DNA from: Bacilli bacterium | GTDB taxonomy: Bacteria > Bacillota_I > Bacilli_A > RF39 > UBA660 | Reading direction: 5' to 3' | DNA length: 64,000 nucleotides | Assembly: GCA_017612805.1 (NCBI GenBank) | Contig: JAGAFD010000007.1 | Coordinates: 48,616 to 112,615 of the forward strand | Shown here: piece by piece, positions 10,522 through 48,207 of the stretch | Position numbering within the stretch: the first letter of the stretch is position 1 | How the letters are laid out: the number at the start of each line of letters is the position of its first letter | Translations under genes and position numbers: made by a program | The notes under the pieces: model-generated | Database searches by the model: none | Told to the model about the DNA's origin: nothing | Seen by the model: only the letters and a program-made list of their open reading frames with translations

Positions 10522-10531
10522 GAGGGTATAT

Positions 10532-10951: not shown

Positions 10952-11046
10952 TATTATGTTTATTAAAAGTCTGTTTTTACAGACTTTTTTTATTGTAAAA
11001 TTGTATTTTTTGATATAAAATAGTTAAGCGTTTGGAGGTTTTTTAT

Positions 11047-11745: not shown

Positions 11746-11822
11746 CATGTTAACTGTGCGTCTAAAATAGTTATCAAATATTTTAGATGCTTTTTTTATG
11801 ATATAATTTAATTGGTGATTAT

Positions 11823-12875: not shown

Positions 12876-12919
12876 AAAAATAAAACAATATCTATGTGAT
12901 ATAATAAAGGTGTTAGAGG

Positions 12920-13432: not shown

Positions 13433-13498
13433 GTCTTTTTAATTGCTATTTAAAATATTTTGTGTTAGTATATAAACCGATTTAAAGAAGGGGATAAC

Positions 13499-14275
13499 AT
13501 GGAAAAAGAATTACTACGTTTGATTTTTAATTATATTAATGAACATCGTGATCCAGATCTTTTATTTGCTTCAATGATTGGTAAAATTAGATTAGCTAAT
13601 AATTCATTTTTTTATAAAAATACTGCTTTTGAACAAGTAAATATGAAACAAAGTGATGAAGGTTTATTTAGTGCTTGTTATGAAGAAAGATTTGAAAGAA
13701 TTTTACTTGATTTAAATGCATTAGAAAAGATTTATGAAGATATTTTATATAAAAATAGCGGTAAGTTTTTAGAATATGATTTAATGTTTCTTCGTTATAG
13801 TACTTTTTTACAAATTATATTACATGAATGTGAACATGTAGTTCAACATGATGATAACTATATTGGTATTAATGAAGATATGATTGTTAAAGCTTGTCAA
13901 ACCGGCTTGGAAGCAATGATGAATGAAGAAAATCCTGAAAACTTTAACATGTTTTTACGTGAAAACAGGTTTATTAATCCATTAGAGAGATTAGCAGAAA
14001 TTAATTCATTAAAGATAACTATTAATACTTTATCTTCTACATGTTTTATGCCTGTTAATTTATTGAAATATTATCATAATGTTTATGAAAATGTGATTAG
14101 TAACGGTTATGATTATACAAACTGTCCTACTCGATATTTTTTAGGTTTAATAAATCAAGAAGATAGCTTTAATGATCTTGATTCAACTTTAATTGCAAAT
14201 TATCCATTAAGAAAAAGATTAGAATTAGGTTTACCGGTAAGTAAGCAAGAACTATTAAGTATTAGAAATCACTAA
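13499..14275 (+). CDS. Hypothetical protein with HExxH (zincin-like) motif
   Basis: ILHECEHVVQ ... NPLERLA. Confidence 0.6.
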   Translation: MEKELLRLIFNYINEHRDPDLLFASMIGKIRLANNSFFYKNTAFEQVNMKQSDEGLFSACYEERFERILLDLNALEKIYEDILYKNSGKFLEYDLMFLRYSTFLQIILHECEHVVQHDDNYIGINEDMIVKACQTGLEAMMNEENPENFNMFLRENRFINPLERLAEINSLKITINTLSSTCFMPVNLLKYYHNVYENVISNGYDYTNCPTRYFLGLINQEDSFNDLDSTLIANYPLRKRLELGLPVSKQELLSIRNH

Positions 14276-14329
14276 AAACTCTTTATTTTCCAAAAATAAC
14301 TATGTTATAATGGAATTGGGAGGATTTAA

Positions 14330-14878
14330 ATGAAGAAGTTATTTGTTATAGCATTAGCAGCATTAATGTTAGTACCTACGGTAGCTTTAGCTAAAAAGAC
14401 TACAAAGAAAACTTCTAGTGAAGAAGTAGTTGAGTTTAAAGAAACCGCTAAAGTTTATATGTTTAGAGGTGAAGGATGCCCTCATTGCGAAGAAGCTTTA
14501 GAATACTTTGATAGCATTAAAGATAAATATGATTTTGAATTAATTACTTATGAAGTATGGTACGACGAAGATAATAAGAAAATTTTAAATGACGTTGCTG
14601 AAGGTTTAGGAAGAGAAGTTGGTGGAGTTCCATTTATCGTAATTGGTAAAACAGCATTCTCTGGATATTCTGAATCTTATAATAAAGATATTGAAGAAGC
14701 TATTAAAACTGAAGGTGTTAATGGTAACGCTAATGAATCTGTTTCTAAATATGCTAATGGTGCTAAAGAAGACGAAAAGAAAAGTAAAAACTCTGCAATA
14801 ATTATTATTTCGGTATTAGTTGTTGCTGGTGTAGTTGCTTTAATCGTTTTAGGTAGAAAAACAGCAACTGAAGAATAA
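14330..14878 (+). CDS. Surface-anchored glutaredoxin/thioredoxin-like protein
   Basis: Signal peptide, CPHC, GVPFIVIG, C-terminal TM. Confidence 0.85.
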   Translation: MKKLFVIALAALMLVPTVALAKKTTKKTSSEEVVEFKETAKVYMFRGEGCPHCEEALEYFDSIKDKYDFELITYEVWYDEDNKKILNDVAEGLGREVGGVPFIVIGKTAFSGYSESYNKDIEEAIKTEGVNGNANESVSKYANGAKEDEKKSKNSAIIIISVLVVAGVVALIVLGRKTATEE

Positions 14879-14918
14879 TAAAAAATAAAAACACATGATT
14901 TAATGTGTTTTTTTATGT

Positions 14919-15851
14919 CTAAAATTCAAAATATTTAATAGGATTTAAAGTATTACAATCTGTTCCACGAATATAACCTTTATTACCAATAATTTTTAGG
15001 AGCGGTTTAATACTCTTTTTATTATAGATGACATCATAACATGCATTAATAGCATTTATTCCATCAGTTAGGGCATTATTATATAAATCAATCATGGAAT
15101 CAGTTTTAACAATGGTGTTGTCAGAAGGATATACCCATTTACGATGATTAACATTTAAGAAATTATAAGAAATATTATTTTTGCTATATAAGTAATTTCT
15201 TAAAGATTTATTCTTTGGTATTGCATAATAAATACCATTTAAGATATTTGGTCTTCTAATAAGATTCATATATCTTCTAGCACATTTATATCCATAGAAT
15301 AAATAAATACCACCATTAAAGTTATACATATTTAAAAATACTTGATTAATACTAGCAATAGTTGCTTTTTTAACTTTTAAAAATGGAATAAACTCTTTTT
15401 TAATATTATGATTAATTAATACTTTTTGATAATATCTTTGATAAGTAAACAAATCATATTGGGTTTCCATTAAAGAGTGTAGTCCATAATACTTTAATGT
15501 TTCTGGTTTGTGATTATAAATACCAGTTTTATAAACAATATATGGATGCATCGTTGCATCAAGAATTTGATGTAAGATAGATCCGAAGATAAAAGCGTTT
15601 AATTCATCGTTATTTTCGATTTTGGCAATATTTACTAATTCTTCAAAATATTTATTAACATTGATACGATGACATTTCTTACATAAATTAGTACATTCTT
15701 TATGTTTTTTTAAAGAGTATTTTAATAAATCAAAACTTTGTGAAGCCATTTCATAAATTTCATTATAATTATTTAATATTTCTTTAGCTTCTGGCTTAAT
15801 ACTTGCTTTTACTTCTTTAGCAAAAATATTATGGGTTATAAAACTTGGCAT
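14919..15851 (-). CDS. Zinc-dependent phospholipase C family protein
   Basis: MP..TH, H..LD...HPY, H..ME. Confidence 0.8.
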   Translation of the reverse strand: MPSFITHNIFAKEVKASIKPEAKEILNNYNEIYEMASQSFDLLKYSLKKHKECTNLCKKCHRINVNKYFEELVNIAKIENNDELNAFIFGSILHQILDATMHPYIVYKTGIYNHKPETLKYYGLHSLMETQYDLFTYQRYYQKVLINHNIKKEFIPFLKVKKATIASINQVFLNMYNFNGGIYLFYGYKCARRYMNLIRRPNILNGIYYAIPKNKSLRNYLYSKNNISYNFLNVNHRKWVYPSDNTIVKTDSMIDLYNNALTDGINAINACYDVIYNKKSIKPLLKIIGNKGYIRGTDCNTLNPIKYFEF

Positions 15852-15942
15852 ATTATCACCTCTATTTACATTATATCACAATTCTTTTTAACTTTTATTT
15901 AAGTATTGTGATATAATCTATTATATATAATAGGTGATAGAA

Positions 15943-16872
15943 ATGAAAGTAAAGACATTTAAAACCCTTGATGAACAAGTTGAAATATTACGTAATAAAG
16001 GGTTAATAATTGATGATGTTGAATCTACTAAAGAAATACTATTACGCGAAAATTATTTCTTCTTATTAGGTTATCGTCATGTTTTTCTGAAAGATGAAAA
16101 TGGTAGGGATTTTATTCCTGGCACTAATTTTAGAGAGTTATATGCTTTATTTTCTTTTGACCGACAAGTAAGAAACATCGTATTTAAAAACCTATTAATT
16201 ATTGAAAATAATATTAAAAGTATTTTATCTTATCAATTATCTAAGAAATATGGTATTAAAGAACGAAATTATTTAAATCCTAATAACTTTACTAAGGATC
16301 CATCTAAGACTAGACAAGTTAATGATTTAATCAAGAAAATGAAAAGGCAAATAAGAGTTAATGGTGGCCAACATAGTGCAACAATGCACTACTTAACTAA
16401 TTATGGTTATATTCCACTTTGGATTGTTGTTAAAGTATTATCATTTGGAATAGTTTCAGAATTATATTCTATATTAACTAATGAAGATCAAAAAGAAATT
16501 GCCGATTTATTTGATGTTAATAAGAATGATTTAGTAACTTATTTATCAATATTATCAAATTTTAGAAACCTTTGTGCTCATGAAGATATCTTATTTGATC
16601 ATCGAACTCATCGGGTAATTGGTGATACGAAATACCATCATTACTTAAATATTAAACAATCGGAAGGTGAGTTTGTTTATGGTAAGGAAGATTTATTTGC
16701 ATTGATTTTAATATTAAAGCATGTATTGCGCAAGGATGACTTTTCATTAATGGTTAATGAAATTAGTTATGAAATTGATGTTTTAGCGGGAAGATTACAT
16801 TCTATTGAACTAAAAAAGGTTTTAGATTTAATGGGATTCCCTGAAAATTATCGAGATATAGTGAGGTATTAA
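15943..16872 (+). CDS. Abi_2 (AbiD/AbiF-like) HEPN protein
   Basis: FKT.DEQ..IL, ENYF, FDR, PLW....LSFG, HEPN RNLCAH. Confidence 0.85.
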   Translation: MKVKTFKTLDEQVEILRNKGLIIDDVESTKEILLRENYFFLLGYRHVFLKDENGRDFIPGTNFRELYALFSFDRQVRNIVFKNLLIIENNIKSILSYQLSKKYGIKERNYLNPNNFTKDPSKTRQVNDLIKKMKRQIRVNGGQHSATMHYLTNYGYIPLWIVVKVLSFGIVSELYSILTNEDQKEIADLFDVNKNDLVTYLSILSNFRNLCAHEDILFDHRTHRVIGDTKYHHYLNIKQSEGEFVYGKEDLFALILILKHVLRKDDFSLMVNEISYEIDVLAGRLHSIELKKVLDLMGFPENYRDIVRY

Positions 16873-16873
16873 A

Positions 16874-17962
16874 ATGAATATAAAGAAAGTATTATTAAGT
16901 ATTTTATTAGTAATTGTTTGTGTATTCTTTAGTGCGTTAACTACTTTAGGTATTTTATATTTATATCCTAAGAGTACTAAAAAGGTTACTAATGTAAATA
17001 AATTAGAAAAAGAAGTAACAATTACTGACAAAGGTATTAGTGAAGCGGTAGCAAAAGTTTACGATGCTACGGTAGTAGTTATTACTAATAAAAGTGGTAA
17101 GACAGTAAGTAGTGGATCAGGATTTATCTTTAAAAAAGATTCCGGAAAAGCTTATATTATTACTAATAACCATGTAGTATCATCTGGGGATAGTTTTTCA
17201 ATTAAATTATCTAATGAGGATGTTTTAGAAGCTAAATTGGTTGGTAGTGATACATTAGCTGATATTGCAGTATTAAGTGTTGATGGTGATAAAGTTAAGA
17301 GCGTTGCAAAGATTGGTAAAACAACTGATTTAAATGTTGGTGATACTGTATTTGCCGTAGGGGCACCACTTGATTATGAAGCATTTGCGTTTAGTGTTAC
17401 CAGAGGAGTATTATCTGGTAAGGATCGTACTGTAGAAGTATCATTAAGTTCTTCTTATAATGCTGATTGGGTTATGAAAGTTATTCAAACCGATACAGCA
17501 ATTAATTCTGGTAATAGTGGTGGGCCATTATGTAATGTTAATGGTGAAGTAATTGGTGTTACAAATATGAAACTAGCTAAAACTGGTGTTGAAGGTATGG
17601 GATTTGCTATTACGATTGAAGATGCCTTAGATTCAGCTGATAACATTATTAAAGGCATTAAAAAAGAATATCCATATATTGGAATTAGTGTTTATAATGT
17701 TGCTGATTTAGCAGCTTATGGATCAACTTATACCCAAAACTTAAGTAAAGGAGTAATTATCACAAAGATTGATGAAGCTGGTTCAGCAGCTAAGTCTGGT
17801 TTTAAAGTTGGTGATATTATTTTAAAAGTTGATGGTAAAGAAGTTTCTAGTGTTGCAACATTTAGATATGAATTATTCCAACATAATATTGGTGATACGG
17901 TTAAAGTAGTTGTTAGTAGAGATAATGAACAACAAACATTTAGTTTAAAATTAGAAAAGTAA
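16874..17962 (+). CDS. htrA: HtrA/DegP serine protease with PDZ domain
   Basis: TM anchor, TNNHV, DIAV, IQTDTAINSGNSGGPL, PDZ. Confidence 0.95.
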   Translation: MNIKKVLLSILLVIVCVFFSALTTLGILYLYPKSTKKVTNVNKLEKEVTITDKGISEAVAKVYDATVVVITNKSGKTVSSGSGFIFKKDSGKAYIITNNHVVSSGDSFSIKLSNEDVLEAKLVGSDTLADIAVLSVDGDKVKSVAKIGKTTDLNVGDTVFAVGAPLDYEAFAFSVTRGVLSGKDRTVEVSLSSSYNADWVMKVIQTDTAINSGNSGGPLCNVNGEVIGVTNMKLAKTGVEGMGFAITIEDALDSADNIIKGIKKEYPYIGISVYNVADLAAYGSTYTQNLSKGVIITKIDEAGSAAKSGFKVGDIILKVDGKEVSSVATFRYELFQHNIGDTVKVVVSRDNEQQTFSLKLEK

Positions 17963-17983
17963 AAGCTTAAGCTTTTACTTTTT

Positions 17984-18619
17984 TTAATACTTGATAATTA
18001 TTTTTTTACCATAAGTAACAATTAAACCATCGTCTTTCATGTTTTTAAGTTCACGCATCATTGCGCAACGATCGACTCCTAAGTAGTCAGCAAACATAGT
18101 GTAAGTAAAAGGAAGATAGATGGTTTTTGATAATGCTTTTAATGATAGATTGTTAAAATACTCTAATAGCTTATCACGAATAGTTCTTTTACTTAAAATA
18201 TTCATATGTTCATTTAAAATTTCTAGTTGGTTTGATAGAGTAATAAAAATATTATTTAAAAACTTAACTTGAACTTCATTATTACTTTTATAGTTTTTTA
18301 AAATATATTCATAATCAAATAATATGATTTTAGTATCAATAATTGCTTTAATACTTAAGTCGTTGTTATTATCACTGGTAAAGAATTTACCAAAGGTATC
18401 TTTGTTTTCGATGTGTTCAATAATCGTTCTGTTCCCATTGTATTCATATCTGATGATTGCTGCTTCACCATCTTCAATATAACCAATTGTGTTTGTATTT
18501 TTAATATTGGTGATAATAATTGAATCTTTTTTGCAAGTAATTTTTTGCGCTTTGAAAAAATTTAACAGATACTTTACATCTTGCTCTGTTAGCCCGGAAA
18601 ATAAGGAAATATCTGGCAT
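17984..18619 (-). CDS. Crp/Fnr family transcriptional regulator
   Basis: cNMP-binding domain plus HTH (FADYLGVDR.AM.REL). Confidence 0.9.
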   Translation of the reverse strand: MPDISLFSGLTEQDVKYLLNFFKAQKITCKKDSIIITNIKNTNTIGYIEDGEAAIIRYEYNGNRTIIEHIENKDTFGKFFTSDNNNDLSIKAIIDTKIILFDYEYILKNYKSNNEVQVKFLNNIFITLSNQLEILNEHMNILSKRTIRDKLLEYFNNLSLKALSKTIYLPFTYTMFADYLGVDRCAMMRELKNMKDDGLIVTYGKKIIIKY

Positions 18620-18661
18620 TTTGTATCACCCGAATTCATCTATTTTTATTATATTTGCAAA

Positions 18662-18679
18662 TTGTTGCAAATGCAACAA
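18662..18679. promoter_or_regulatory. Palindromic operator TTGTTGCA-AA-TGCAACAA between the crp/fnr gene and the nrdD operon
   Basis: Perfect 8-bp inverted repeat in the divergent intergenic region. Confidence 0.7.
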
Positions 18680-18731
18680 AAACTTTTTTGATATGATGCT
18701 AAAATGAAATCATGGTAAGGGTAGTGAAAAT

Positions 18732-20591
18732 ATGAAAATAGTTAAACGGGATGGTAGAACCGTTGACTATGATCCTTTGAAGATTCACTTAGCAATAAAT
18801 AAAGCGAATCAAGAGGTCGAAGAGTCAAAGAGGTTATCAGACAAATATATCGATAAGATAGTTCAATATATTGAATCACTCGGTAAGAAACGAATATTGG
18901 TTGAAGACATTCAAGATATTATTGAAGAGAAGCTAATGGAGTATAAAAAATATGAATTAGCTAAATGTTATATTATCTATCGTCATAACCGAGCTTTAAT
19001 TCGTAAGTCAAATAATACCGATGAAAATATCCTAGGTATTATAAAAAGTCAAAATAAACGGCTTGTTGGTGATTCATACAAAAAGAATTGTGCAATAGCA
19101 GCGTTACAACGTGATATCGTTGCTGGAGAAATTTCTAAGGATATTACTAAGCGAGTCTTGTTACCAGAAAAGATAATAAGTGCTCACGAAGAAGGATTAA
19201 TATATTTTCACGATATGGATTATTTCATTCATTCAATATTTAATGCTTGTTATGTAAATATTGAAGATATGTTAAATAACGGAACGGTGATGAATGGTAT
19301 TACGATTGAATCGCCAAAGAGTTTCCAAGTAGCTTGTAATGTTACGACGCAGATATTATCACAAGTTGCATCTGGTCAATATGGAGCTACAACCATAAAT
19401 GTTTCGAAGTTAAGCCCTTACTTAAAAAAATCTTATTTAAAAATTAAAAAGAAATTAACAAAATTATATAAAGATAAAATCAGTCCTGAATTAATGGAAG
19501 AACTAATTGAAGAAAGAACTCAAACCGAATTATCTAACGGAGTTCAAACCCTTTTATATCAAACAAATACATTAATGACATCAACTGGTAAACCACCATT
19601 TGTAACCTTGGTGTTACATTTGGATAAAGATGATCCATTAATTGATTTAAGTGCCAAGATAATTAATAAGATAATAGATTTGTTTAAAGTTGGTATTTTA
19701 GATGAAGATGGTAGCTTTATTAAATATCAATATCCTAAATTAGTTTATATCTTAAGTGATAATAATGATATTAATAAGAAATATGGTTATATTACGGAAA
19801 ACTTATTAAACACTATCAATGAAATTGATGGATTAACAATTATTTCTGAACCAAAAATGAAGGAATTATTTGGTAGTGTATATGGACCTTTAAATAATAA
19901 TATGTTTTTAAGTCCATATAAAGAAAATGGTGAATATAAAGTTGATGGTAGATTTATTACCGGAATGGTATCAATAAATCTTACTAGTGCTTGTATTGAT
20001 GCTAACTATGCTATTGATAAGTTCTTTAAAATCTTAGAGGATCGCTTAGAGTTATCAAAAGATGCTTTATTGTGTCGTTATCGTTCACTTTTAAATGTTT
20101 CTAGTGACGTATCACCAATCCATTGGCAATATGGTGGAATTACTAGAATAGCAACTAATGAAAAAATTGATAACTATTTAAAAAATGGTTATAGCAATTT
20201 AGTATTAGGATATTCTGGATTAGAAGAATGTGCTAATGCAATGGATAATGAAAATAAGTTAGCAATTAAAACTAAGATCTTGCATTTTATTAATGAAAAA
20301 ATTAAGAGTTGGAATAAAGAAAATGAAATCGTAATAACCCTTTATAATAATTTAGATATCGGTAGTTATTTTATTAAAAAGGATTATGAACGATTTGGAA
20401 TTATTAAAAATTTAACAGATAAAGAAAGTTATGATAATGATCATTATATCGATTTAAATAACTATGAAAATCAGACAATCTTACAAGATATGTCTTTAGG
20501 GGGCTACACATTAAAAATTAAGAAGGAAGATTTAACGGTAGAAAATCTTTCAATTATTAAGAAAAATATTTGGTATGTAGAGGTAGAGTAA
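18732..20591 (+). CDS. Class III RNR (NrdD) paralog with ATP cone, lacking catalytic Cys and the glycyl-radical domain
   Basis: ATP cone IVKRDG; FHDMDY; NAC for NCC; GPLNN for MGCR; no CxxC/RxxGY C-terminus. Confidence 0.85.
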   Translation: MKIVKRDGRTVDYDPLKIHLAINKANQEVEESKRLSDKYIDKIVQYIESLGKKRILVEDIQDIIEEKLMEYKKYELAKCYIIYRHNRALIRKSNNTDENILGIIKSQNKRLVGDSYKKNCAIAALQRDIVAGEISKDITKRVLLPEKIISAHEEGLIYFHDMDYFIHSIFNACYVNIEDMLNNGTVMNGITIESPKSFQVACNVTTQILSQVASGQYGATTINVSKLSPYLKKSYLKIKKKLTKLYKDKISPELMEELIEERTQTELSNGVQTLLYQTNTLMTSTGKPPFVTLVLHLDKDDPLIDLSAKIINKIIDLFKVGILDEDGSFIKYQYPKLVYILSDNNDINKKYGYITENLLNTINEIDGLTIISEPKMKELFGSVYGPLNNNMFLSPYKENGEYKVDGRFITGMVSINLTSACIDANYAIDKFFKILEDRLELSKDALLCRYRSLLNVSSDVSPIHWQYGGITRIATNEKIDNYLKNGYSNLVLGYSGLEECANAMDNENKLAIKTKILHFINEKIKSWNKENEIVITLYNNLDIGSYFIKKDYERFGIIKNLTDKESYDNDHYIDLNNYENQTILQDMSLGGYTLKIKKEDLTVENLSIIKKNIWYVEVE

Positions 20592-35580: not shown

Positions 35581-36552
35581 ATGAAAAAGAAATTTAAGTT
35601 ATTACTATTATTAATTACATTTATATGTTTAGTATTCATAGGAATAATGTTTTATATTCGTAATGTAAGATATACTTTTAAATTAGCAGATAAAGTGTCA
35701 GTTAATTTAAATGACTCAGTTGATCCAGCTAAATATATTAAAGACATGAAAAATGTTAATGTTTATTATGAATCAATTGATACATCAAAAGCTGGTATAT
35801 ATAAAATTAAGTATACAGTTAAAACTAATTTAGGGATTAAAAAGGATTATTATTTAGAAGTTGAAGTTATTGATAATACGCCAGTAATCAAAGTAGAACC
35901 AGAAGTAGAACCAAATCCCGAAAAGGTTGAAATTAAAACTACTGAACCAGTTAAGAATAATAAGGTGGTTAGTAGAACATCAAGTAAAGGTTATAAAGTT
36001 GAAGAAATTAATTCGGTAACATATGTTAATGGTATTTTGATCGCTAATAAAACTTTTTCCCTTCCATCAACTTATAATCCAGGAGGATTAACAAGTGAGG
36101 TTAATGCAGCTGCTGATGAAATGTTTGCGGCTGCTAAAGTGGTAGGATTTGAAATGAAAGCACAAAGTGGTTTTAGATCATATGAAACGCAAAGAAAGTT
36201 ATATAATAATTATGTTAATCGTGATGGCAAAGCAAAAGCTGACACGTATTCTGCAAGACCTGGCCATTCGGAACATCAAACTGGCTTAGCATTTGATGTG
36301 TGTGCTAAAGGTTATGCGTGTATTAATTCTAATTTTAATGGTACTGCACCGGCTAACTGGTTAGCTAATAACGCTCATCTATATGGTTTTATTTTAAGAT
36401 ATCCAAAAGGTAAAACAAATGAAACTGGTTATTTGTATGAATCATGGCATTTTAGATATGTAGGTAAGGAATTAGCAGCAGAATTATATAATAATGGTGA
36501 TTGGATTTCACTTGAAAATTATCTAGGAATTACTTCTGAATACAGTAATTAA
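35581..36552 (+). CDS. M15B D-Ala-D-Ala / LD-carboxypeptidase (VanY/LdcB-like) with Ig-like domain
   Basis: SGFRSY, SARPGHSEHQTGLAFD, ESWHFRYVG. Confidence 0.93.
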   Translation: MKKKFKLLLLLITFICLVFIGIMFYIRNVRYTFKLADKVSVNLNDSVDPAKYIKDMKNVNVYYESIDTSKAGIYKIKYTVKTNLGIKKDYYLEVEVIDNTPVIKVEPEVEPNPEKVEIKTTEPVKNNKVVSRTSSKGYKVEEINSVTYVNGILIANKTFSLPSTYNPGGLTSEVNAAADEMFAAAKVVGFEMKAQSGFRSYETQRKLYNNYVNRDGKAKADTYSARPGHSEHQTGLAFDVCAKGYACINSNFNGTAPANWLANNAHLYGFILRYPKGKTNETGYLYESWHFRYVGKELAAELYNNGDWISLENYLGITSEYSN

Positions 36553-36971
36553 TGTAATTCTTTGCATACTCCAGGATCTGGTTTATAAAAACAATGATTT
36601 TTGTATTTTCCGGCTAGTTGTTGATCGTACCAAGTACTTTTACAATTATAGCCTTTTTTTGGTGCATAAAACCATAAAGCATTAGTTGCTGGATAATAAT
36701 ATTCGCCATTTAATACACGTTTTGCTAAATTTTTTTCTAATGTTGTTGAGGTACTTTGAAATAGTGATGAACTAGTACCAACAAATTGATTCTTTTGGTA
36801 GATAGCATCATAAATTGTTGAAATGTTTTTAAAAGTTAAGCAATTAGCTAAAACACGGTTTACAACTACATTACCAACCATCAACATCCCTAGATTACCT
36901 TCTGCTAGTGCTTCGGCACGCATAATTCTTGCCAATAAATCTAATTCTTTAGTTGTATAGTTAACTAACAT
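36549..36971 (-). CDS. cwlJ: Spore cortex-lytic enzyme CwlJ
   Basis: LLARIMRAEA..EG..GML.VGNV..NR..ANC..FK, LWF, WY.Q, HCFY. Confidence 0.92.
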   Translation of the reverse strand: MLVNYTTKELDLLARIMRAEALAEGNLGMLMVGNVVVNRVLANCLTFKNISTIYDAIYQKNQFVGTSSSLFQSTSTTLEKNLAKRVLNGEYYYPATNALWFYAPKKGYNCKSTWYDQQLAGKYKNHCFYKPDPGVCKELH

Positions 36972-37061
36972 ATATATCACCACTTTATCTTATGCATTTT
37001 TCTAATAAATGTTGTTATTTTTACGATTATATGGTAATATATAGAAGTCTTAAAGATTTAT

Positions 37062-37135
37062 AGAGGTGTAGTTAAATGGTATAATAATGGTCTCCAAAAC
37101 CACTGTTGGGAGTTCGATTCTCTCCACCTCTGCCA
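37062..37135 (+). tRNA. tRNA-Trp (CCA), encoded CCA end
   Basis: Cloverleaf: AGAGGTG/CACCTCT acceptor stem, loop CTCCAAA, TTCGATT T-loop, ends GCCA. Confidence 0.96.
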
Positions 37136-37177
37136 TGGATTATTAAGTAGCTTAGGCTACTTTTTTCATGGTATAAT
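37131..37177 (+). repeat. Cassette head module, copy 1 (TGCCAT + terminator + extended -10)
   Basis: TGCCATGGATTATTAAGTAGCTTAGGCTACTTTTTTCATGGTATAAT; near-identical copies at 38574-38621 and 39068-39115. Confidence 0.9.
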
Positions 37178-37195
37178 AATGTTGGAGTTGATAAT

Positions 37196-37750
37196 ATGTC
37201 TAAATATTTAAAAGTAATGTTTGGTAATAAAGGTGTTAACTTTGAATATAAAATAGATGAAGTAAATGTTTCAAATATTTGGAATCCTAATGCATCTCGT
37301 CCTGAAGAAATGGGTGGATTTAATTTTTCTATTGAAGATAAAATATTAAGATGGTTAGTAAGAGGGGATACTCTTTATGATGTAATAATACCTGATGATG
37401 CTGAAGTAATAGATTGCCCTAGTGAGTCCGCTCCACATGGTGTGTTTAGAAGTAATAAAATAATATTAACTAATCCTAGACCAATGACTGATGAATTAGC
37501 AATGAATTTTTATTTAAAATCTGACTTGCCAGAAAAATCATATTTTAAGTCCCTTGCTGGTGTTGCTATTAGAGGATATAAAAATACAGCCATAAAAATA
37601 ATAGAGGATAAAATTAATAATGATAATATAGATTTAGTATTAAGTGAGATAGAAGATTTTACTAAACCTTATCAAAATGATTTTGATGATACATACACTG
37701 TCTATAATGAAGTAATGCAAAAACTTCAAGATATAAAAGAAAATATGTAG
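37196..37750 (+). CDS. Hypothetical protein (cassette 1 cargo)
   Basis: ORF with SD; its stop codon abuts repeat R1. Confidence 0.8.
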   Translation: MSKYLKVMFGNKGVNFEYKIDEVNVSNIWNPNASRPEEMGGFNFSIEDKILRWLVRGDTLYDVIIPDDAEVIDCPSESAPHGVFRSNKIILTNPRPMTDELAMNFYLKSDLPEKSYFKSLAGVAIRGYKNTAIKIIEDKINNDNIDLVLSEIEDFTKPYQNDFDDTYTVYNEVMQKLQDIKENM

Positions 37751-37780
37751 AGTTTTAAACCCTTATCAATTACGTGCCAT
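37751..37780 (+). repeat. 30-bp cassette junction repeat R1
   Basis: AGTTTTAAACCCTTATCAATTACGTGCCAT. Confidence 0.95.
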
Positions 37781-37790
37781 TTAGAATATT

Positions 37791-37818
37791 AAAACACTAA
37801 CTTAATTGTTAGTGTTTT
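37791..37818. terminator. Bidirectional terminator, family B copy 1
   Basis: AAAACACTAAC-TTAATT-GTTAGTGTTTT. Confidence 0.85.
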
Positions 37819-37832
37819 TTATTTATATAATC

Positions 37833-38504
37833 TTACCATATAAATGGTATCAATTTATATTTTACTTTCTTTTTATACTCTTTATATCCCTTAAGTTCTC
37901 TTTCTAATACTTCTTCTTCATACTTTATTCTTTTGCTAATAATAAATGGATATATTAGGAATATTATAAATGAGATAATTGAACCTAGTATTAGTGGCAT
38001 AGTTAAGAATAACATAAGAGAGGCAGAGTACATTGGATGTCTTACAACACTGTATAAACCACTATCAACTACTTTTTGTTCTTTTTGTACTTCAATAGTT
38101 CTGGAAAGATATGTATTTTCTCTTAATACCTCAGCATATAAGATATATGCAATCATAAATAAAAAAGAAGCAATTATTACAATATATTTAGGCATTATTA
38201 TCCATGAAAATCTATAGTTTAAACCTGCAATTATAAATCCTGATAAAAACATAAATCCACTATATAAAATAACTAACTTTTGTTCTTTTTCATTTTCTTT
38301 AACATCTAATCTGCTTTTTAACAATTGTGGATTCTTAAATATTAATATTATACCCGCCATAAACATTGGAATAAATAATAATGCCATAAAAAGCCATGCG
38401 TTCGAATAGTAAAATGAACCAGCTGAAATAAATAATATAGTACCAACCAATAATACTCCTAAAACAAATTTTGTTATGCCTGATAAAAACAATTTTGCTT
38501 TCAT
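37833..38504 (-). CDS. Isoprenylcysteine carboxyl methyltransferase (ICMT/PEMT) family membrane protein (cassette 2 cargo)
   Basis: Q.VV.SGLY..VRHPMY, RI..EE..L, Y..Y. Confidence 0.88.
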   Translation of the reverse strand: MKAKLFLSGITKFVLGVLLVGTILFISAGSFYYSNAWLFMALLFIPMFMAGIILIFKNPQLLKSRLDVKENEKEQKLVILYSGFMFLSGFIIAGLNYRFSWIIMPKYIVIIASFLFMIAYILYAEVLRENTYLSRTIEVQKEQKVVDSGLYSVVRHPMYSASLMLFLTMPLILGSIISFIIFLIYPFIISKRIKYEEEVLERELKGYKEYKKKVKYKLIPFIW

Positions 38505-38549
38505 ATTATCACATCCTAGTTTAAGTATATCATAATATTTAGGATAATG

Positions 38550-38621
38550 AGTTTTAAACCCTTATTAATTACGTGCCATGAGATTATTAAGCTGCTTCGG
38601 CTACTTTTTTTATGTTATAAT
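38550..38621 (+). repeat. Junction repeat R2 plus head module copy 2
   Basis: AGTTTTAAACCCTTATTAATTACGTGCCAT-GAGATTATTAAGCTGCTTCGGCTACTTTTTTTATGTTATAAT. Confidence 0.95.
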
Positions 38622-38642
38622 GGATATATATGGAGGTATTAT

Positions 38643-39041
38643 ATGAGTACTAAAATTGTTTTAACTGGAATTTTAAAAGACGATAACGAATTGTTAATTG
38701 TTAAAAGAAGTGAAAATGATGATTTATACCCTGGGGCTTGGGAGTTTCCTGGTGGTCATTTAGAAAATGGTGAAACTTTAAAAGAAGGATTAAAAAGAGA
38801 GTTATTTGAGGAAATTGGATTTGATATAGATTTTGAACCAATTATTACACATTATTATGATGAAATTAAAGAAAAAAATAATGAATTGATTCATGACTTA
38901 GAAATTGATTTTATTATAAATGTAAAAAAAGAAGATATTAATGTTGTTTTAAGTAATGAGCATTGTGATTTTAAATGGGTTACTAAAGAATCTGATTTAT
39001 TAGATGAATATATAAAAGATAAATTAATTAACATTAAATGA
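38643..39041 (+). CDS. NUDIX hydrolase (cassette 3 cargo)
   Basis: WEFPGGHLENGET...GLKRELFEEIG; SD GGAGG. Confidence 0.92.
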   Translation: MSTKIVLTGILKDDNELLIVKRSENDDLYPGAWEFPGGHLENGETLKEGLKRELFEEIGFDIDFEPIITHYYDEIKEKNNELIHDLEIDFIINVKKEDINVVLSNEHCDFKWVTKESDLLDEYIKDKLINIK

Positions 39042-39043
39042 AT

Positions 39044-39115
39044 AGTTTTAAACCCCTATCAATTACGTGCCATAAGATTACTAAGTAGCTTCGGCTACTT
39101 TTTTTATGTTATAAT
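39044..39115 (+). repeat. Junction repeat R3 plus head module copy 3
   Basis: AGTTTTAAACCCCTATCAATTACGTGCCAT-AAGATTACTAAGTAGCTTCGGCTACTTTTTTTATGTTATAAT. Confidence 0.95.
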
Positions 39116-39131
39116 GTATCTAGGTGATATT

Positions 39132-39689
39132 ATGGAAGATATCGAGATAAGCTTATCAGTTGACAAAGAACCATATATAAAAAAGATAACTGATGATAGA
39201 ATTATTAATCTTACTGGACAAAGTGGATCTGGTAAATCTACGTATGCTATGAACCATTTTAACACTAATGAATATTTAGTAATTGATACTGATGATATTT
39301 TTTCTGATAATCGTTTTAAAGATAGCGTAGGTATTAATAGAGAATTAGGAGAATATTTTAGAAATAAATATCCTACATTGCCTAATTGTGGTGATGATTT
39401 TGATCTTATTTATAAGGAAATATTAGATTATTGTCAAAAATATGATAAAACGATTGTTATTGATTGTGCACAATTTCATTGTATTAAAGATATTTCCCTA
39501 TTAAAAGGAACTATAATTGTGATTAGAACTTGTATTGATAATTGTTATAACAGGGCGATTGAAAGATATAAACAAATTACGAAGGATTATACGGAAGAGG
39601 ACTTAATTAACTATCAAAACAAGAAAAAAAGTTTATATGTATGGTATAAATACACTAATGAATTTTTAAATAAAATAGACAAATTATAA
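39132..39689 (+). CDS. P-loop nucleotide-kinase-like protein
   Basis: GQSGSGKST, IDTDDI, IVID. Confidence 0.8.
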   Translation: MEDIEISLSVDKEPYIKKITDDRIINLTGQSGSGKSTYAMNHFNTNEYLVIDTDDIFSDNRFKDSVGINRELGEYFRNKYPTLPNCGDDFDLIYKEILDYCQKYDKTIVIDCAQFHCIKDISLLKGTIIVIRTCIDNCYNRAIERYKQITKDYTEEDLINYQNKKKSLYVWYKYTNEFLNKIDKL

Positions 39690-39691
39690 AT

Positions 39692-39717
39692 AAAACACTA
39701 ACTTACGTTAGTGTTTT
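39692..39717. terminator. Bidirectional terminator, family B copy 2
   Basis: AAAACACTAAC-TTAC-GTTAGTGTTTT. Confidence 0.85.
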
Positions 39718-40118
39718 TTTAACCACATATACATACCATCTTCAGCTACTTTTTTATTAGCTTTAAATCCGAATTTTTTATAAAAATCTTGTTTACCTGG
39801 CGCTGATAATAGTTGAATCATTATTTGCTCATCATCTTCTAAATTATTTTTTAAGTGTCTTATTAAATATTGAATCATTTTTTTGCCATAACCTTTACCT
39901 TGGTAATCAGGATGAACAATAACATCCATTAATAATCCTGCATATCCACCATCAGTTACATATCTTGCCATACCAATGGTTTTACCATCAAGCACATATT
40001 TAACATTAATACCGTTTGCTAATGAAATTTTTAATAATCTTTCTGATGGTTGCTTCCAACCAAGGGAGTTTAATAAATAATAGTATTCTTCTGCTGTTAA
40101 TTTATTTAGTTCAATCAT
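39708..40118 (-). CDS. GNAT N-acetyltransferase
   Basis: DVIVHPDYQGKGYG, FYKKFGF. Confidence 0.92.
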   Translation of the reverse strand: MIELNKLTAEEYYYLLNSLGWKQPSERLLKISLANGINVKYVLDGKTIGMARYVTDGGYAGLLMDVIVHPDYQGKGYGKKMIQYLIRHLKNNLEDDEQIMIQLLSAPGKQDFYKKFGFKANKKVAEDGMYMWLKKH

Positions 40119-40212
40119 GTTAGTATTCACCTCATAATTATTATATCATAATAAAAATATTGGAGTTTCTCAATATAATTATGTTATAATTAAAACATAG
40201 GAGGGTTTGTTG

Positions 40213-44105: not shown

Positions 44106-44864
44106 TTACTTCCTATTTTTTGACTTTAATCTAGTTGTATTATAGAATAATATCCATTCTTCTACAAGTTTTTGGTATTCTTGTAAAGATATGATATTAT
44201 TGTTATGCAAGGTTTCCTTTTTAAGGATACCATGCCAACTTTCCATTGGTGAATCATCTATCGGAGTACCTTTTCTGGACATAGAAATAGTTATTCCATT
44301 AGATTTACAAATGGATTTGTATTCAAAAGATGTATATTGGAAGCCTTGATCACTGTGAATGATGAGTCCATGTACATCTTTTCTTTTTGAAATAGCTTCA
44401 TTTAATGTATCAATCACAAGTTGATTATTATTAAATTTTGATATTTTATAAGCAACAACTTTTCTATCATATAAATCTAATATGGTTGATAAATATAAAC
44501 GCTTATTTTTAAATATTAGATATGTAATATCTGTTGTCCATTTTTCATTAGGTTTATTTGCTTTAAAATTCCTTTTTAATATATTAGGCTGTACATTTTC
44601 TTCAATTCTTTTATAAGTATTTGGTCTAGTTCTCTTTATATATTCAGGCTTTAAATAATATTTTTTCATTATTCTAGCAACCTTTTTATGATTAAATATT
44701 ACACCATATTCAATCTTTAAGCCTTCTGTTATCCTTCGATATCCATATGTGCCCTTAGATTTATTAAATACATTTTTAATCATTAAGTAATCTAAATAAT
44801 CAGGATCATCTGAATTTCTATATTTATAATAAGTTCTTCTACTTATTTCCAAAACAGCACACAT
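44106..44864 (-). CDS. IS3 transposase OrfB (DDE/rve)
   Basis: YGYRRI, W.TDITY, HSDQGFQY, D.SPMESW..LK.E. Confidence 0.95.
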   Translation of the reverse strand: MCAVLEISRRTYYKYRNSDDPDYLDYLMIKNVFNKSKGTYGYRRITEGLKIEYGVIFNHKKVARIMKKYYLKPEYIKRTRPNTYKRIEENVQPNILKRNFKANKPNEKWTTDITYLIFKNKRLYLSTILDLYDRKVVAYKISKFNNNQLVIDTLNEAISKRKDVHGLIIHSDQGFQYTSFEYKSICKSNGITISMSRKGTPIDDSPMESWHGILKKETLHNNNIISLQEYQKLVEEWILFYNTTRLKSKNRK

Positions 44865-44905
44865 GTTTGAAAGTTTATATTTATTAATATATAAATTTAT
44901 AAATG

Positions 44906-45178
44906 TTACTTTCTCTTTCGTTGTGCCTTTAGGAAGGCTTGGTATTTTTTTAATATTTCATATCTTTCTTTATAATCAATATTTTCTTCTTTTCTACGTC
45001 CTCTTGAATGATTTATATCATTTTCTTGAGAATGATATAATTTTTCTTTTTTTAACCAATTAAAAATTGTTTTATATGATATTCCATATTCTTTTTGTAA
45101 AGAATTTAATGTTCCATTGCCATTAAAATATTTATTGACAATTTCTTTTTTAAGATTAATATCATAGTGTTTTCCCAT
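44906..45178 (-). CDS. IS3 transposase OrfA (HTH)
   Basis: HTH; A7 slippery run at 44945-44951 leads by -1 shift into the orfB frame. Confidence 0.9.
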   Translation of the reverse strand: MGKHYDINLKKEIVNKYFNGNGTLNSLQKEYGISYKTIFNWLKKEKLYHSQENDINHSRGRRKEENIDYKERYEILKKYQAFLKAQRKRK

Positions 45179-45276
45179 AAAAATAACATCTCCTTTTCTT
45201 AAGATGTTATTTTATATTATTATTCTCTTTTTTTTTAAGTGCCCAAAATAGGGTTCACTTCAATAAAGCTCTTTTT

Positions 45277-46077
45277 TTATTTAGTTGTTTCAAGCGGTTT
45301 GGTATATTTAATACAAATATTATCAGTTAAGGTATATTCACTATCATTACATTTACCGGCAGTAATTTCTTCGCTAGTAGCATCTTTAGTATATTTACAT
45401 AAATATTCATTATTTCTAGTGACTACTAATCCGCCTGGACATTCTCCTATACCTTCTTTAGTTTCTTCTTTTTTATAATATGTTTCATTTACTGTTGTTT
45501 CAGTTTTAGTTGATTTAGTAGTTTCTTCATTCTTTTCCCAATTAGCATATAAAGTAATATCATCACATGTTAATAGGGCACCATCTAAAATTACTTTACC
45601 ATGTTTATCAGCCCATGAAACAAATGTATAACCAGCTTTAGTAGGATTACTTGGTAATTTTACCGTATCATCACATTTAATAATAACGTTTTTAACTTTA
45701 CTACCACCATTAGAATTAAATGAGATGGTATAAGTTTTAGGAGTATTAGTAGTTAATACCCATTTAGCAGTTAAAGTAATATCTTTTTTAAATGTATAAT
45801 CTTCATCAATTAATGTTTCATCATAATACCAACCATCAAATTCATAACCATCTCTTACTGGTGTTGGTAAGTTAGTTGCTTCATCTTTTCTAACTTTAAT
45901 ACTTTTTAAATCATCTCCACCTGCAGTATCAAATTTAATAGTTATAGTAGTATTTTTAATACTGTTATCGTTTTTAACGAATACTAATGCACCTGTAATT
46001 AAGATAATTGCAACAATTAGTCCAATTATTGCTAAAGCTATAGCAATAATGGCACCAATAATAAAACCTTTTTTCAT
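45277..46077 (-). CDS. Membrane-anchored protein with two InlB B-repeats
   Basis: F.T.GG......LP.P.R.GY.F.GW twice. Confidence 0.85.
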   Translation of the reverse strand: MKKGFIIGAIIAIALAIIGLIVAIILITGALVFVKNDNSIKNTTITIKFDTAGGDDLKSIKVRKDEATNLPTPVRDGYEFDGWYYDETLIDEDYTFKKDITLTAKWVLTTNTPKTYTISFNSNGGSKVKNVIIKCDDTVKLPSNPTKAGYTFVSWADKHGKVILDGALLTCDDITLYANWEKNEETTKSTKTETTVNETYYKKEETKEGIGECPGGLVVTRNNEYLCKYTKDATSEEITAGKCNDSEYTLTDNICIKYTKPLETTK

Positions 46078-46164
46078 ATAATCGCCTTCCTCTAATCTTA
46101 TTATTACAAATATCATTAATTATTTCAATTCTAAAATCATATATTTAAAAGAAAGGATAAAAAT

Positions 46165-46644
46165 ATGATTTTAATAATACATGATCTTTTAGAAGAAGAA
46201 TTTCAAAAATTAAATATTAAAGGTGATAAAGTTTTATCATCAGATATGAAAATAACTAAGTGCATGGGTTGTTTTGATTGTTGGATTAAAAATCAAGGTT
46301 ATTGTAAGTATAAAGATAATTTTTATAATATGAAAGACTTATATAATGAAGCGGATAAAATCATTGTTATTAGTAAGAATTGTTATGGAATGTTTTCTCC
46401 ATTTATAAAAAACGTCTTTGATCGTAGTATTGGTTATATTAAACCGTATTTTCGAACTTATAAAGATGAAGTACATCATCAAATGCATAGTGATAAAGTA
46501 TTAAAAATGGAATATATCATTTATGGTGACATGAATAAGCTTTATCAAAATACCTTTGATAAATTATTAACATTTAATCAAGAAAACTTTGTTAATGATT
46601 ATCAAGTTAAATATGTTGATAGAATCGAGGATTTATATGAATAG
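46165..46644 (+). CDS. Iron-sulfur flavoprotein / flavodoxin-like protein
   Basis: CMGCFDCW.....C, SP..KN.FDR. Confidence 0.8.
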   Translation: MILIIHDLLEEEFQKLNIKGDKVLSSDMKITKCMGCFDCWIKNQGYCKYKDNFYNMKDLYNEADKIIVISKNCYGMFSPFIKNVFDRSIGYIKPYFRTYKDEVHHQMHSDKVLKMEYIIYGDMNKLYQNTFDKLLTFNQENFVNDYQVKYVDRIEDLYE

Positions 46645-47215
46645 GATTGTTATGTTAAATGGAAGTCCTAAGAAAAAAGGTAGTGCATCTGAACAATATT
46701 TAAATATGATTTATGAAAACTTAGATAATAACTATTATATTGAAGAATATGATATGAATAAATTAACTAATACTATTAAAAAAAGTATCTTAAATGCGGA
46801 TATGTTAATAATAGCAACTCCTTTATATATTGATTGCCTACCTTCACATGTTATTAAGTTTTTGATGGAATTAGGTGATAATGATATTGCCGGTAAAGAA
46901 GTTTATTTTTTAGTTAATTGTGGCTTTTTAGAAGGAGTACATACTGATGTTTCGGTAGAAATTTTGAAAAATTATTGTGATTATCATCATCTAATATATA
47001 AAGGTAGTTTAGGAATTGGGGCTGGTCCAATTGCTTATAAAAAACGTATTTATAATTATTTTGTTAAAAAAGAATTAATTATTTTTAGTAATTATATTAA
47101 TTATCATAAAAATTATGAAGATGATTATGTAAGGCCATTAATTCCAAGGTTTATTTATATTTTATTTGCTAATATAAATTGGTTTATTCAAATAAAATCT
47201 TTTAAAAAAAATTAG
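46637..47215 (+). CDS. Flavodoxin-like NAD(P)H-dependent oxidoreductase
   Basis: NGSPK..GSAS, TPLYID.LPS, NCGF.EG. Confidence 0.8.
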   Translation: MNRIVMLNGSPKKKGSASEQYLNMIYENLDNNYYIEEYDMNKLTNTIKKSILNADMLIIATPLYIDCLPSHVIKFLMELGDNDIAGKEVYFLVNCGFLEGVHTDVSVEILKNYCDYHHLIYKGSLGIGAGPIAYKKRIYNYFVKKELIIFSNYINYHKNYEDDYVRPLIPRFIYILFANINWFIQIKSFKKN

Positions 47216-47259
47216 ATTATGATAATATTTAGATATAAAAGTAATAATAAGGTGTTTAT

Positions 47260-48207
47260 ATGAAAAAGAAAAATTTTATCATTTCAATAGTTATTATTTT
47301 AATCTTATTTTTATTATTAGTATCTTGTTATCAATATGATGTAGCAATTTCTGATTATTTAAAATCAATTAGTAGTGATGGATTAGATTTTGCTATGCAA
47401 ATGATTACTTATTTTGGGAATATTATTTGTTTGTTAATCATTACGTTATTTTTAATAATTGCGCTTGATTATCGGACTTCTAAAAATATTGTCGAAGTTA
47501 TATTAACGGGTTTACTAACTAACACATTAATTAAATTAATTTTTAGAAGACCTAGACCATTATCAATATTTTATGAACAAGGTTATAGTTTTCCAAGTGG
47601 TCATATGATGTTATCGGTAATGTTTTATGGCTACTTATGTTACTTGGTTTATCATTCTAAATGTCGAAAAAGTTTAAAGATTGCTTTTTATATTACCATG
47701 ACACTTTTAGTAGGAGCTATTGGTTTAAGTAGAGTTTATTTAAATGTTCATTATTTAACTGATGTAATTGGTGGTATTTTATTTGGCTATTTAATGATGT
47801 TATTATTTATAATATATACAAAACAAAAACATAAATTAATTGATGAATCAATTCGCTTGGATCGTAGTTTTAAATATGCCTTTAAAGGTATTGGAACGGT
47901 TGTATTATATGAAAAGAATATGCATATTCATGTCTTGGCAACTATTTGTGTATTAATTCTTGGCTTGAAATTTGAAATTACTAAGTTTGAATGGTTAGCT
48001 TGTTTAATTGTAATTGGGATGGTTATATCTTCAGAAATCTTTAATACAGCTATTGAAAAATGTGTTGATTATATTAGCTTAGAGAAAAATAAATTAGCAG
48101 CTTCAATTAAAGATATGGCTGCCGGAGCAGTTTTAATAAATGCTATTATTGCTTTAATCGTAGGTATTATTATATTCCTACCAAAAATTATTTTATATTT
48201 GAAATAA
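47260..48207 (+). CDS. PAP2 phosphatase fused to DgkA (undecaprenol/diacylglycerol kinase)
   Basis: K..F.RPRP, SFPSGH, SRVYL.VH..TDV; then F.YA..G, E.FNTAIE..VD, KDMAAGAV. Confidence 0.9.
   Translation: MKKKNFIISIVIILILFLLLVSCYQYDVAISDYLKSISSDGLDFAMQMITYFGNIICLLIITLFLIIALDYRTSKNIVEVILTGLLTNTLIKLIFRRPRPLSIFYEQGYSFPSGHMMLSVMFYGYLCYLVYHSKCRKSLKIAFYITMTLLVGAIGLSRVYLNVHYLTDVIGGILFGYLMMLLFIIYTKQKHKLIDESIRLDRSFKYAFKGIGTVVLYEKNMHIHVLATICVLILGLKFEITKFEWLACLIVIGMVISSEIFNTAIEKCVDYISLEKNKLAASIKDMAAGAVLINAIIALIVGIIIFLPKIILYLK

Follow-up and report, generated by a model that had tools for sequence, protein, structure and literature searches.

A tRNA-Trp-anchored array of one-gene cassettes in small Bacilli genomes, probably exchanged by island-borne serine recombinases

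A cassette array anchored at tRNA-Trp

The window analyzed here, a stretch of 64,000 nt, lies on contig C7 of a Bacilli genome (G000) whose assembly comprises 1,048,228 bases in 10 contigs (~27% G+C, 94% complete). Throughout, C numbers denote contigs of G000, other G numbers denote genomes, and L numbers denote loci or contigs. ARAGORN located a single tRNA gene in the window, tRNA-Trp(CCA), which is the only tRNA-Trp among the 33 tRNA genes of G000. It anchors an array of short units, each consisting of a head with a terminator, one gene, and, except in the last unit, a closing 28-nt repeat that we call the arm (Table 1). Our data suggest that such cassettes pass between related bacteria at a single precise short site, probably through a serine recombinase borne on larger islands that occupy this site in relatives.

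The left junction of the array is the 3' TGCCA of the tRNA itself, with TGCCAT running across the end of the gene at 37131-37136. Behind it, the 30-mer AGTTTTAAACCCYTATYAATTACGTGCCAT occurs on the plus strand at 37751, 38550, and 39044, the second and third copies (R2 and R3) each differing by one base from the first (R1); none of 100 shuffles gave a match. Cutting after each TGCCA yields units of 644, 799, and 494 bp with one gene per unit. A terminator-like hairpin opens every unit (6 found in the 3.4 kb region scanned, 0.7 expected), and the forward cargo genes stop 0 and 2 nt before the repeat. A preliminary description of the locus had proposed three near-identical repeats, terminator-led units with one unrelated gene each, and cargo stops abutting the repeat. 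Repeat matching, the cuts, Pfam, the hairpin scan, and the sequence as read all agree with it.

The heads are of two kinds. Head A, found in forward units, consists of a linker like TnAGATTATTAAG, the hairpin GTAGCTnAGCTAC, a T run, and TGnTATAAT. Head B, found in reverse units, reads TTAGAATATTAAAACACTAAC...GTTAGTGTTTTTT, and the promoter of the reverse gene falls within a conserved module of 60-90 nt adjoining the arm. In cassette 2 this minus-strand promoter, TGATATACT, was read by eye, as were the TGnTATAAT boxes of the units; a generic promoter scan gave no information beyond chance (31 found, 30.7 expected). The 184-aa protein of cassette 1 gave no match in the Pfam search. The kinase unit at the right has a head and lacks an arm, and may be the original neighbor of tRNA-Trp.

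No site-specific recombinase of the tyrosine or serine type was found in the array or anywhere else in the window, in line with the preliminary description; the Pfam matches in G000 fall only on C3 and C10. These include two Xer-like tyrosine recombinases (PF00589) of 288 and 292 aa, on C3 and C10.

Searches of the whole G000 assembly for the 30-mer, allowing up to 6 mismatches, returned nothing beyond the three array copies. With a weight matrix, the three arms scored 38-40 bits and the next best of 1117 windows ending in TGCCA scored 13. Genome-wide scatter as a repetitive extragenic palindromic (REP) repeat, which would have refuted the preliminary description, is therefore rejected: the three copies all lie behind tRNA-Trp. 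An arrangement resembling clustered regularly interspaced short palindromic repeats (CRISPR) was ruled out by the spacings of 270-1629 bp with genes between copies. Folding of the arm with its flanks gave energies of 0 to -1.1 kcal/mol, no stronger than for shuffled sequences. A tRNA 3' half or minihelix within the arm was likewise rejected, as the positions concerned are unpaired by eye and ARAGORN gave no extra tRNA.

The arm, GTTTTAAACCCnTAT-n6-CGTGCCA, is conserved over several genera of one family of ~1 Mb genomes. A strict pattern, GTTWWAAACCCNTATNNNNWNCGTGCCA with up to 2 mismatches, was present in 9 of 401 sampled family genomes, representing 8 of 214 genera. The same pattern matched 23 stretches among one-genome-per-species contigs, with record titles naming metagenome-assembled genomes of Bacilli, Erysipelotrichaceae, or Tenericutes and stated sources that were mostly rumen or ruminant gut, and a further 57 stretches in metagenome contigs. 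As a phage attachment site (attP), it had no match in a viral contig collection, a result that speaks for that collection only.

tRNA-Trp, upstream and on the same strand, is the only regular tRNA neighbor of arms. ARAGORN placed 28 forward tRNA-Trp genes at 110 arm-bearing loci (duplicates kept), along with one tRNA-Phe and one reverse tRNA-Ala. After de-duplication, tRNA-Trp was upstream in 22 of 87 loci; among the 23 that extend more than 3 kb upstream, it was present in 12. Many arm-bearing contigs are too short to judge. At two arm loci with ~10 kb of upstream sequence, no tRNA was found.

Weight-matrix searches delimited 53 distinct complete units, of which 46 measure 266-1629 bp and hold one or two genes, while the other 7 measure 3-10.7 kb; loci carry up to four arms. 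A forward gene follows head A in 21 of 21 units and a reverse gene follows head B in 17 of 20; since head type tracks gene orientation in this way, the head belongs with the gene on its right. Of the 25 units whose last gene is forward, 14 have its stop codon no more than 3 nt from the arm. Pfam assigned the cargo (48 unit proteins) to GNAT acetyltransferases (6), XRE-type helix-turn-helix (HTH) proteins (3), and NUDIX, serine hydrolase, TM1586-type nitroreductase, and DNA alkylation repair families (2 each), with several methyltransferases besides. One unit is empty: behind an LSR (large serine recombinase, see below) gene in G069 (L155, oriented 11692-11989), two identical arms of the third type stand 270 bp apart with no open reading frame of at least 50 aa between them.

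Table 1. Features of the tRNA-Trp locus in G000 (window coordinates)
Feature	Position	Strand	Remarks
Cell-wall hydrolase gene	36549..36983	-	Pfam Hydrolase_2, E 7e-19; conserved left flank of the tRNA-Trp locus
tRNA-Trp (CCA)	37062..37135	+	ARAGORN; intact
Cassette 1, 644 bp	37136..37779	+	Head A (linker, terminator 37145-37162, TGGTATAAT at 37169-37177); 184-aa gene 37196-37750; arm 37752-37779 ending TGCCA
Cassette 2, 799 bp	37780..38578	gene on -	Head B (two-way terminator 37791-37818); PEMT/ICMT-family gene 37833-38504, its promoter adjoining the arm; arm 38551-38578
Cassette 3, 494 bp	38579..39072	+	Head A (terminator 38590-38602 plus TGTTATAAT); NUDIX gene 38643-39041; arm 39045-39072
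Fourth unit, no closing arm	39073..39717	+	Head A (terminator 39083-39100 plus TGTTATAAT); P-loop kinase-like gene 39114-39689; head-B-like terminator 39692-39717
GNAT acetyltransferase gene	39708..40130	-	Pfam; conserved right flank in G000, G002, and L038

The genes flanking the array are conserved. Homologues of the hydrolase (71-84% identity) lie upstream of tRNA-Trp in L040 (G002), L048, and L039, and homologues of the right-flank GNAT gene are 75-92% identical. In G046 (L037/L018), a homologue of this GNAT gene sits inside an arm-closed unit 6.7 kb from tRNA-Trp; the right-flank gene may therefore once have been a cassette itself. Elsewhere in the window lies an IS3-type DDE transposase pair (rve core plus HTH; 44106-45178, minus strand), and a 73%-identical copy of this pair breaks the head-B terminator behind an arm in G053 (L043).

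Exact junctions and the exchange of cassettes

Comparison with other genomes reveals discrete units, breakpoints exactly at TGCCAT, changed neighbors and positions of one cassette, and one insertion polymorphism of an island. The same-genus genome G002 has the hydrolase gene, tRNA-Trp, and, farther on, the opposite-strand GNAT gene as in G000, with different genes in between; its first gene behind tRNA-Trp is framed by a head sequence and an arm ending GTGCCAT. Across loci, the DNA on either side of the 28-mer varies. On its left, the arm adjoins either a forward gene's stop codon or, where the gene is reversed, that gene's promoter region; on its right there is always a hairpin. Junctions stay constant while the content of the tRNA-Trp locus changes, be it in a same-genus genome, other genera, or metagenome contigs, as the preliminary description had anticipated.

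The same cassette also occupies different array positions. For example, the NUDIX cassette is third in G000 but stands directly behind tRNA-Trp in metagenome contig L096, with 462 of 494 positions identical (93.5%). The alignment shows no similarity to the left of the first TGCCAT, where an arm faces a tRNA, or to the right of the second. The two hosts are not close, because their tRNA-Trp genes are only 50/74 identical (68%). Two more cassette pairs, each with one copy behind a tRNA and one behind an arm, align at 80.8% over 625 nt and 98.4% over 888 nt.

The second of these pairs represents an empty and an occupied site. In L109, tRNA-Trp is followed at once by a head-B cassette. In G414, a tRNA identical to that of L109 is followed by a 10.7 kb island ending in an arm, and then by the same cassette. 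All three junctions share TGCCATT. This polymorphism bears out the proposal that insertion takes place at the tRNA-proximal junction. In its main features, the interpretation given in the preliminary description is supported.

Contigs assembled from other gut or rumen runs (X numbers), which do not name their organisms of origin, were used as support only. A 2863-nt contig from run X7 carries the ICMT cassette (15 differences in 757, ~98% identity), then an arm and head B, 1752 nt foreign to the window, and the head and start of the kinase unit (13 differences in 283). As this foreign DNA fills the interval between the ICMT and kinase units, the NUDIX cassette has been replaced there. The left part of a 1210-nt contig from run X5 is as in the X7 contig.

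Three candidate observations were set aside. ICMT cassettes in L066, L082, and L107 resemble that of the window in size and gene length, but with DNA only ~45% identical they are no evidence of recent transfer. Joints leading from the tRNA (37130) to 37775, skipping exactly 644 bp, were seen in X6, X7, and X9 and were not counted as excision: only 24-28 letters at 90% likeness support their sides, and other organisms with tRNA followed by head B could give the same joint. Joints that run backward (37761 to 37131 and 38579 to 37139) could reflect circles or other neighbors with a generic head A, and were not counted either. Parts of the window that lacked coverage in some runs, and runs with small shares, were likewise left out of the evidence.

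Serine recombinase islands and the proposed route of movement

An LSR gene is carried on a unit at the tRNA-Trp site in four relatives (G335, G414, G348, and G192). In G335, a single contig of 1.26 Mb, the arm lies 11.5 kb from tRNA-Trp, and a single unit with an ordinary head fills the space between them. This unit encodes a 545-aa LSR with Resolvase and Recombinase domains, together with a serine recombinase of 199 aa and a fragment of 123 aa. A reverse lipoprotein gene separates the LSR from the arm, and behind this island stand three arms and more cassettes. Close relatives of the G335 LSR (44-55% identity, E <1e-140) were found in 12 more of the 401 genomes. Arm-family sequence ending GTGCCA occurs 55-940 bp past the LSR stop in 12 of the 13 genomes of this clade, and within 250 bp in 10. 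Seven LSR loci have at least 8.6 kb of upstream sequence; in four, tRNA-Trp lies 6-9 kb upstream on the same strand, and the LSR-bearing island is the unit that spans from the tRNA to the first arm.

The arms fall into three types sharing the frame nTTnnAAAC...GATTA.CG-TGCCA. These types follow the LSR tree, a pattern that shared descent of whole islands would also give. In L103, an LSR fragment 92.5% identical to the G335 enzyme is followed 86 bp later by an arm with the central CAATTA of the G000 type.

The G414 island (L150, native 9111-19622) encodes an XRE repressor, a Macro-domain protein, a KAP-family NTPase of 846 aa, and a small serine recombinase, a gene set that recalls anti-phage defence islands. 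Joining its arm to its left end gives a deduced attP in which TTTGGA and TCCAAA are equidistant, by eye, from the TG of TGCCA. In size and symmetry, this deduced site is what an LSR site is expected to look like.

G000 encodes four LSRs of its own (527-588 aa), in two tandem pairs ~38 kb apart on C10 (~6056-9300 and 44204-47517). Identity among the four is 35-58%, against 22-25% to the tRNA-Trp island LSR, and at the latter distance they were set aside as the enzyme of the array. The paired arrangement recalls ccrA/ccrB. More distant relatives of the island LSR (36-42% identity; L133, L139-L143, L145, and L147) lie within ~1 kb of tRNA-Gly, tRNA-Arg, or tRNA-Thr genes, and an LSR of 55% identity (L120) lies near a tRNA-Ala gene. 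The group may target several tRNA genes.

We consider it fairly probable that the array consists of small recombinase-less cassettes which undergo conservative site-specific recombination at the TG(CCAT) of tRNA-Trp, moved by an LSR in trans or alongside its islands. In this model, each cassette starts with a short linker and a terminator, which serves the tRNA or the unit before it as well; a promoter of its own, a single gene on either strand, and a 23-nt arm plus TGCCA complete it. The arm would be the left half of the attP of the LSR clade carried on the 8-11 kb islands, and the tRNA-Trp end with its downstream terminator would be the chromosomal site (attB), cut by the LSR at the TG inside the core. 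Islands would enter at the tRNA junction without damage to the tRNA. The mini-cassettes could be moved in trans by the island LSR, either as circles of their own or co-excised with an island. The second route seems likelier: an island would excise via a distal arm, carry neighboring cassettes to a new host, and later leave alone. Such accretion and cis-mobilisation would resemble that of composite islands of the staphylococcal cassette chromosome (SCC). For G000, we conjecture that the NUDIX, ICMT, and 184-aa cassettes were inserted in that order ahead of the kinase unit. The LSR as the enzyme, the crossover at TG, and the route of movement are what we infer, with the enzyme linked to the arm by association. 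The G000 array would currently be an orphan, because the genome encodes no cognate LSR.

A more specific form of this model we put forward tentatively, as possible rather than probable. Here the system would be an LSR-based gene-capture platform in which promoter-bearing one-gene cassettes go in one by one where the only tRNA-Trp gene ends in CCA. Every insertion would rebuild the tRNA end and a fresh target, and the cassette pool would be common to several genera of gut and rumen bacteria with ~1 Mb genomes.

Several observations weigh against LSR-driven movement. G000 has no close homologue of the island LSR (no match at E 1e-40). The preliminary description had called for a recombinase co-distributed with the repeat. 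At the level of loci, the LSR is indeed tied to the arm, but co-occurrence at the level of genomes is nearly lacking: the 9 genomes with the strict arm and the 13 with a close LSR overlap in G335 alone. One clade member, G107, has no arm, and no tRNA-Trp was found within 8.6 kb (G047) or 9.9 kb (G069) upstream of the LSR. The link between LSR and arm could itself reflect shared descent of whole islands, and the arm weight matrix was seeded with LSR-associated arms. Tyrosine recombinase genes occur upstream of arms in two contexts (L049 and L043). Finally, no circles or excision products have been demonstrated in the data, which are assembled contigs of public runs.

The inferred sites pose a further difficulty. 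By eye, the heads of the mini-cassettes contain no clear inverted copy of the arm, so that the attP inferred for a cassette is unlike a symmetric LSR attP; the G414 island alone is symmetric. Canonical LSRs recombine only attP with attB, not hybrid sites. Serial insertion at the tRNA would therefore need a head that mimics the right half of attB, or a relaxed enzyme similar to Ccr.

The alternative that survives best is that the cassettes were never mobile, alone or in trans, and are cargo ends of former islands left by internal deletion, so that the array is a fossil record of island visits. The lipoprotein gene of G335, lying between the LSR and the arm, shows that islands carry cargo adjoining the arm, and G000 and most arm-bearing genomes lack a cognate LSR. 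Decay of tRNA-linked elements to cis-mobilizable elements (CIMEs), followed by accretion, is described in passages of PMC5704250. Random deletions, however, would not produce the same tight layout of linker, hairpin, TGnTATAAT, ribosome binding site, gene, and arm in 21 of 21 forward units. Moreover, the 494-bp unit is kept end to end, with both ends at TGCCAT, in hosts whose tRNAs are 68% identical. We regard this explanation as unlikely.

Less likely again is movement by a tyrosine recombinase, either the host Xer pair or a phage-type integrase of mobilisable elements, with TGCCAT(T) as the overlap region. Its 6-7 bp match the usual overlap length of such enzymes, and G000 encodes two Xer-like proteins. 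Genes for tyrosine recombinases also occur within arm-closed units. That in L049 (native 3189-6210) encodes a Mob_Pre relaxase, a 426-aa tyrosine integrase, an HTH_17 protein, and a winged-helix protein, and that in L043 (native 4527-6655) a 321-aa tyrosine recombinase and a Fic-domain protein. Yet L043, L047, and L049 have only the last 85-90 nt before the arm in common (the promoter module), and the DNA farther left differs; since nothing more is shared, the recombinase genes lie in variable cargo at no fixed distance from the site. Such genes were near arms in only these two contexts among the loci screened, compared with an arm in 12 of 13 genomes of the LSR clade. The conserved and variable blocks of the arm place TGCCA at its outer end rather than at the border of a central region. 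The best dif-like 28-mer of G000 (C10:137483, minus strand, at the contig end), ~900 bp from an Xer-like gene (C10:135685-136563), is unlike the arm.

It is very improbable that no site-specific recombination takes place and that the arm and terminator form a regulatory or RNA module, with genes turned over by homologous recombination between modules. Heads and arms are repeated and 90-100% alike, so that exchange between them is possible, and every junction has a terminator. But the tRNA and the arm share nothing to the left of TGCCA, and the junction is exact nonetheless. In reverse cassettes the arm is upstream and antisense of the gene and therefore cannot be a 3' untranslated element; the arm lacks a fold of its own, as the energies above indicate, and it also closes islands of 8-11 kb. 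Barely credible is single-strand HUH transposition of the IS200/IS605 type, as for palindrome-associated transposable elements (PATEs), in which elements would insert 3' of TGCCA and carry a hairpin near their left end. In its favor, a fixed pentamer always precedes the insertion, no target sequence is duplicated beyond it, and a hairpin does lie 10-16 nt inside the left end. Against it, the arm (right) end has no hairpin, the same ends bound LSR islands, no Y1 transposase (PF01797) was found in the 94%-complete G000 assembly, and none is among the genes named in the loci examined, which were not scanned for Y1 specifically.

If movement by the island LSR is correct, an uncultured gut and rumen lineage with ~1 Mb genomes trades single accessory genes through compact cassettes at one tRNA gene. 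Integron-like one-gene cassettes and SCC-like mobilisation in trans by an LSR, usually separate ideas, would be joined in one system. The defined set of LSR, attB, and attP (the tRNA-Trp end, the 23-nt arm, and the TG core) is open to direct testing, and the simple sequence signature could be used to mine the accessory gene pool of these organisms from metagenomes.

Comparison with known systems

Tycheposons of Prochlorococcus reportedly use tyrosine recombinases and carry partial tRNA repeats. Like the loci described here, they are said to be variable islands linked to tRNA genes, with modular cargo and a streamlined host genome. The pdif modules and integrative mobile elements exploiting Xer (IMEX), which are understood to depend on XerC/D, share small recombinase-less modules, short sites, and an enzyme encoded elsewhere. 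They differ in that the arm is unlike the dif-like site of G000 and has its junction at the end of the 28-mer instead of in a central region. PATEs derived from IS200/IS605 have hairpins at both ends and a Y1 transposase; here the arm end has no hairpin, and G000 gave no match to PF01797.

Integrons, as generally understood, likewise collect mostly one-gene cassettes at one fixed site, with coding sequence reaching the recombination site. Their cargo is also rich in small enzymes (compare GNAT, 6 of 48 proteins here), and recombinase-less integron arrays occur. Other hallmarks of integrons differ. There is no intI next to an attI, the only PF00589 matches of G000 being the two Xer-like genes on C3 and C10. 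In place of an attC with an imperfect hairpin, there is an arm that folds no better than shuffles. Instead of promoterless cassettes in one orientation under Pc, the units have their own promoter and terminator, 21 with a forward gene behind head A and 17 with a reverse gene behind head B. The anchor here is a tRNA 3' end, and the candidate enzyme is a serine recombinase.

Among tRNA-linked concepts, accretion of CIMEs, of the ICESt1/ICESt3 type, comes nearest. Passages of PMC5704250 describe integrase-less CIMEs that accrete with integrative and conjugative or integrative and mobilizable elements (ICEs and IMEs) at tRNA genes and are mobilised in cis; they also state that IMEs with serine recombinases usually integrate within genes. 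Both systems have tandem members bounded by att repeats at a tRNA 3' end, with recombinase-less members mobilised together with an incoming element. CIME accretion differs by its tyrosine integrases, longer tRNA-derived repeats, and origin in the decay of large elements. In place of the 15-60 nt tRNA repeat and tyrosine integrase of CIMEs and tRNA islands, only TGCCA(TT) is shared here, and the units are minimal.

The preliminary description knew of no system with this layout. As a general statement this needs qualifying, given that tandem recombinase-less cassettes are known from the SCCmec region and accretion at tRNA genes is known as well. What stands is narrower: a limited literature search found no description of LSR-linked one-gene cassettes at a tRNA gene.

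For the SCCmec region, passages of one study (bioRxiv 10.1101/2023.03.17.533233) describe rows of ccr-less cassettes behind rlmH, with Ccr att sites on either side of each one, and the excision of cassettes singly, in pairs, or all together by the LSRs of one unit. As with SCCmec and its CcrAB or CcrC enzymes, insertion here is at the 3' end of a conserved gene that is kept intact, tandem units are each bounded by direct repeats with the att core (here TGCCA(T)), and most units lack a recombinase. The target, however, is tRNA-Trp instead of rlmH. Most units span 0.3-1.6 kb and consist of one gene behind a stereotyped terminator-promoter head, in contrast to the tens of kb of SCC, and the repeat consists of a 23-nt arm and a core of 5-7 nt. 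No unit of the G000 array carries an LSR, whereas the same-site islands of its relatives have one. The likeness is drawn from layout, the present system being known from sequence alone. On this analysis, the SCCmec region appears to be the closest described system, and the array may be viewed as SCC-like, LSR-linked, tRNA-anchored, common to several genera of small-genome gut and rumen bacteria, and miniaturised to promoter-bearing single genes.

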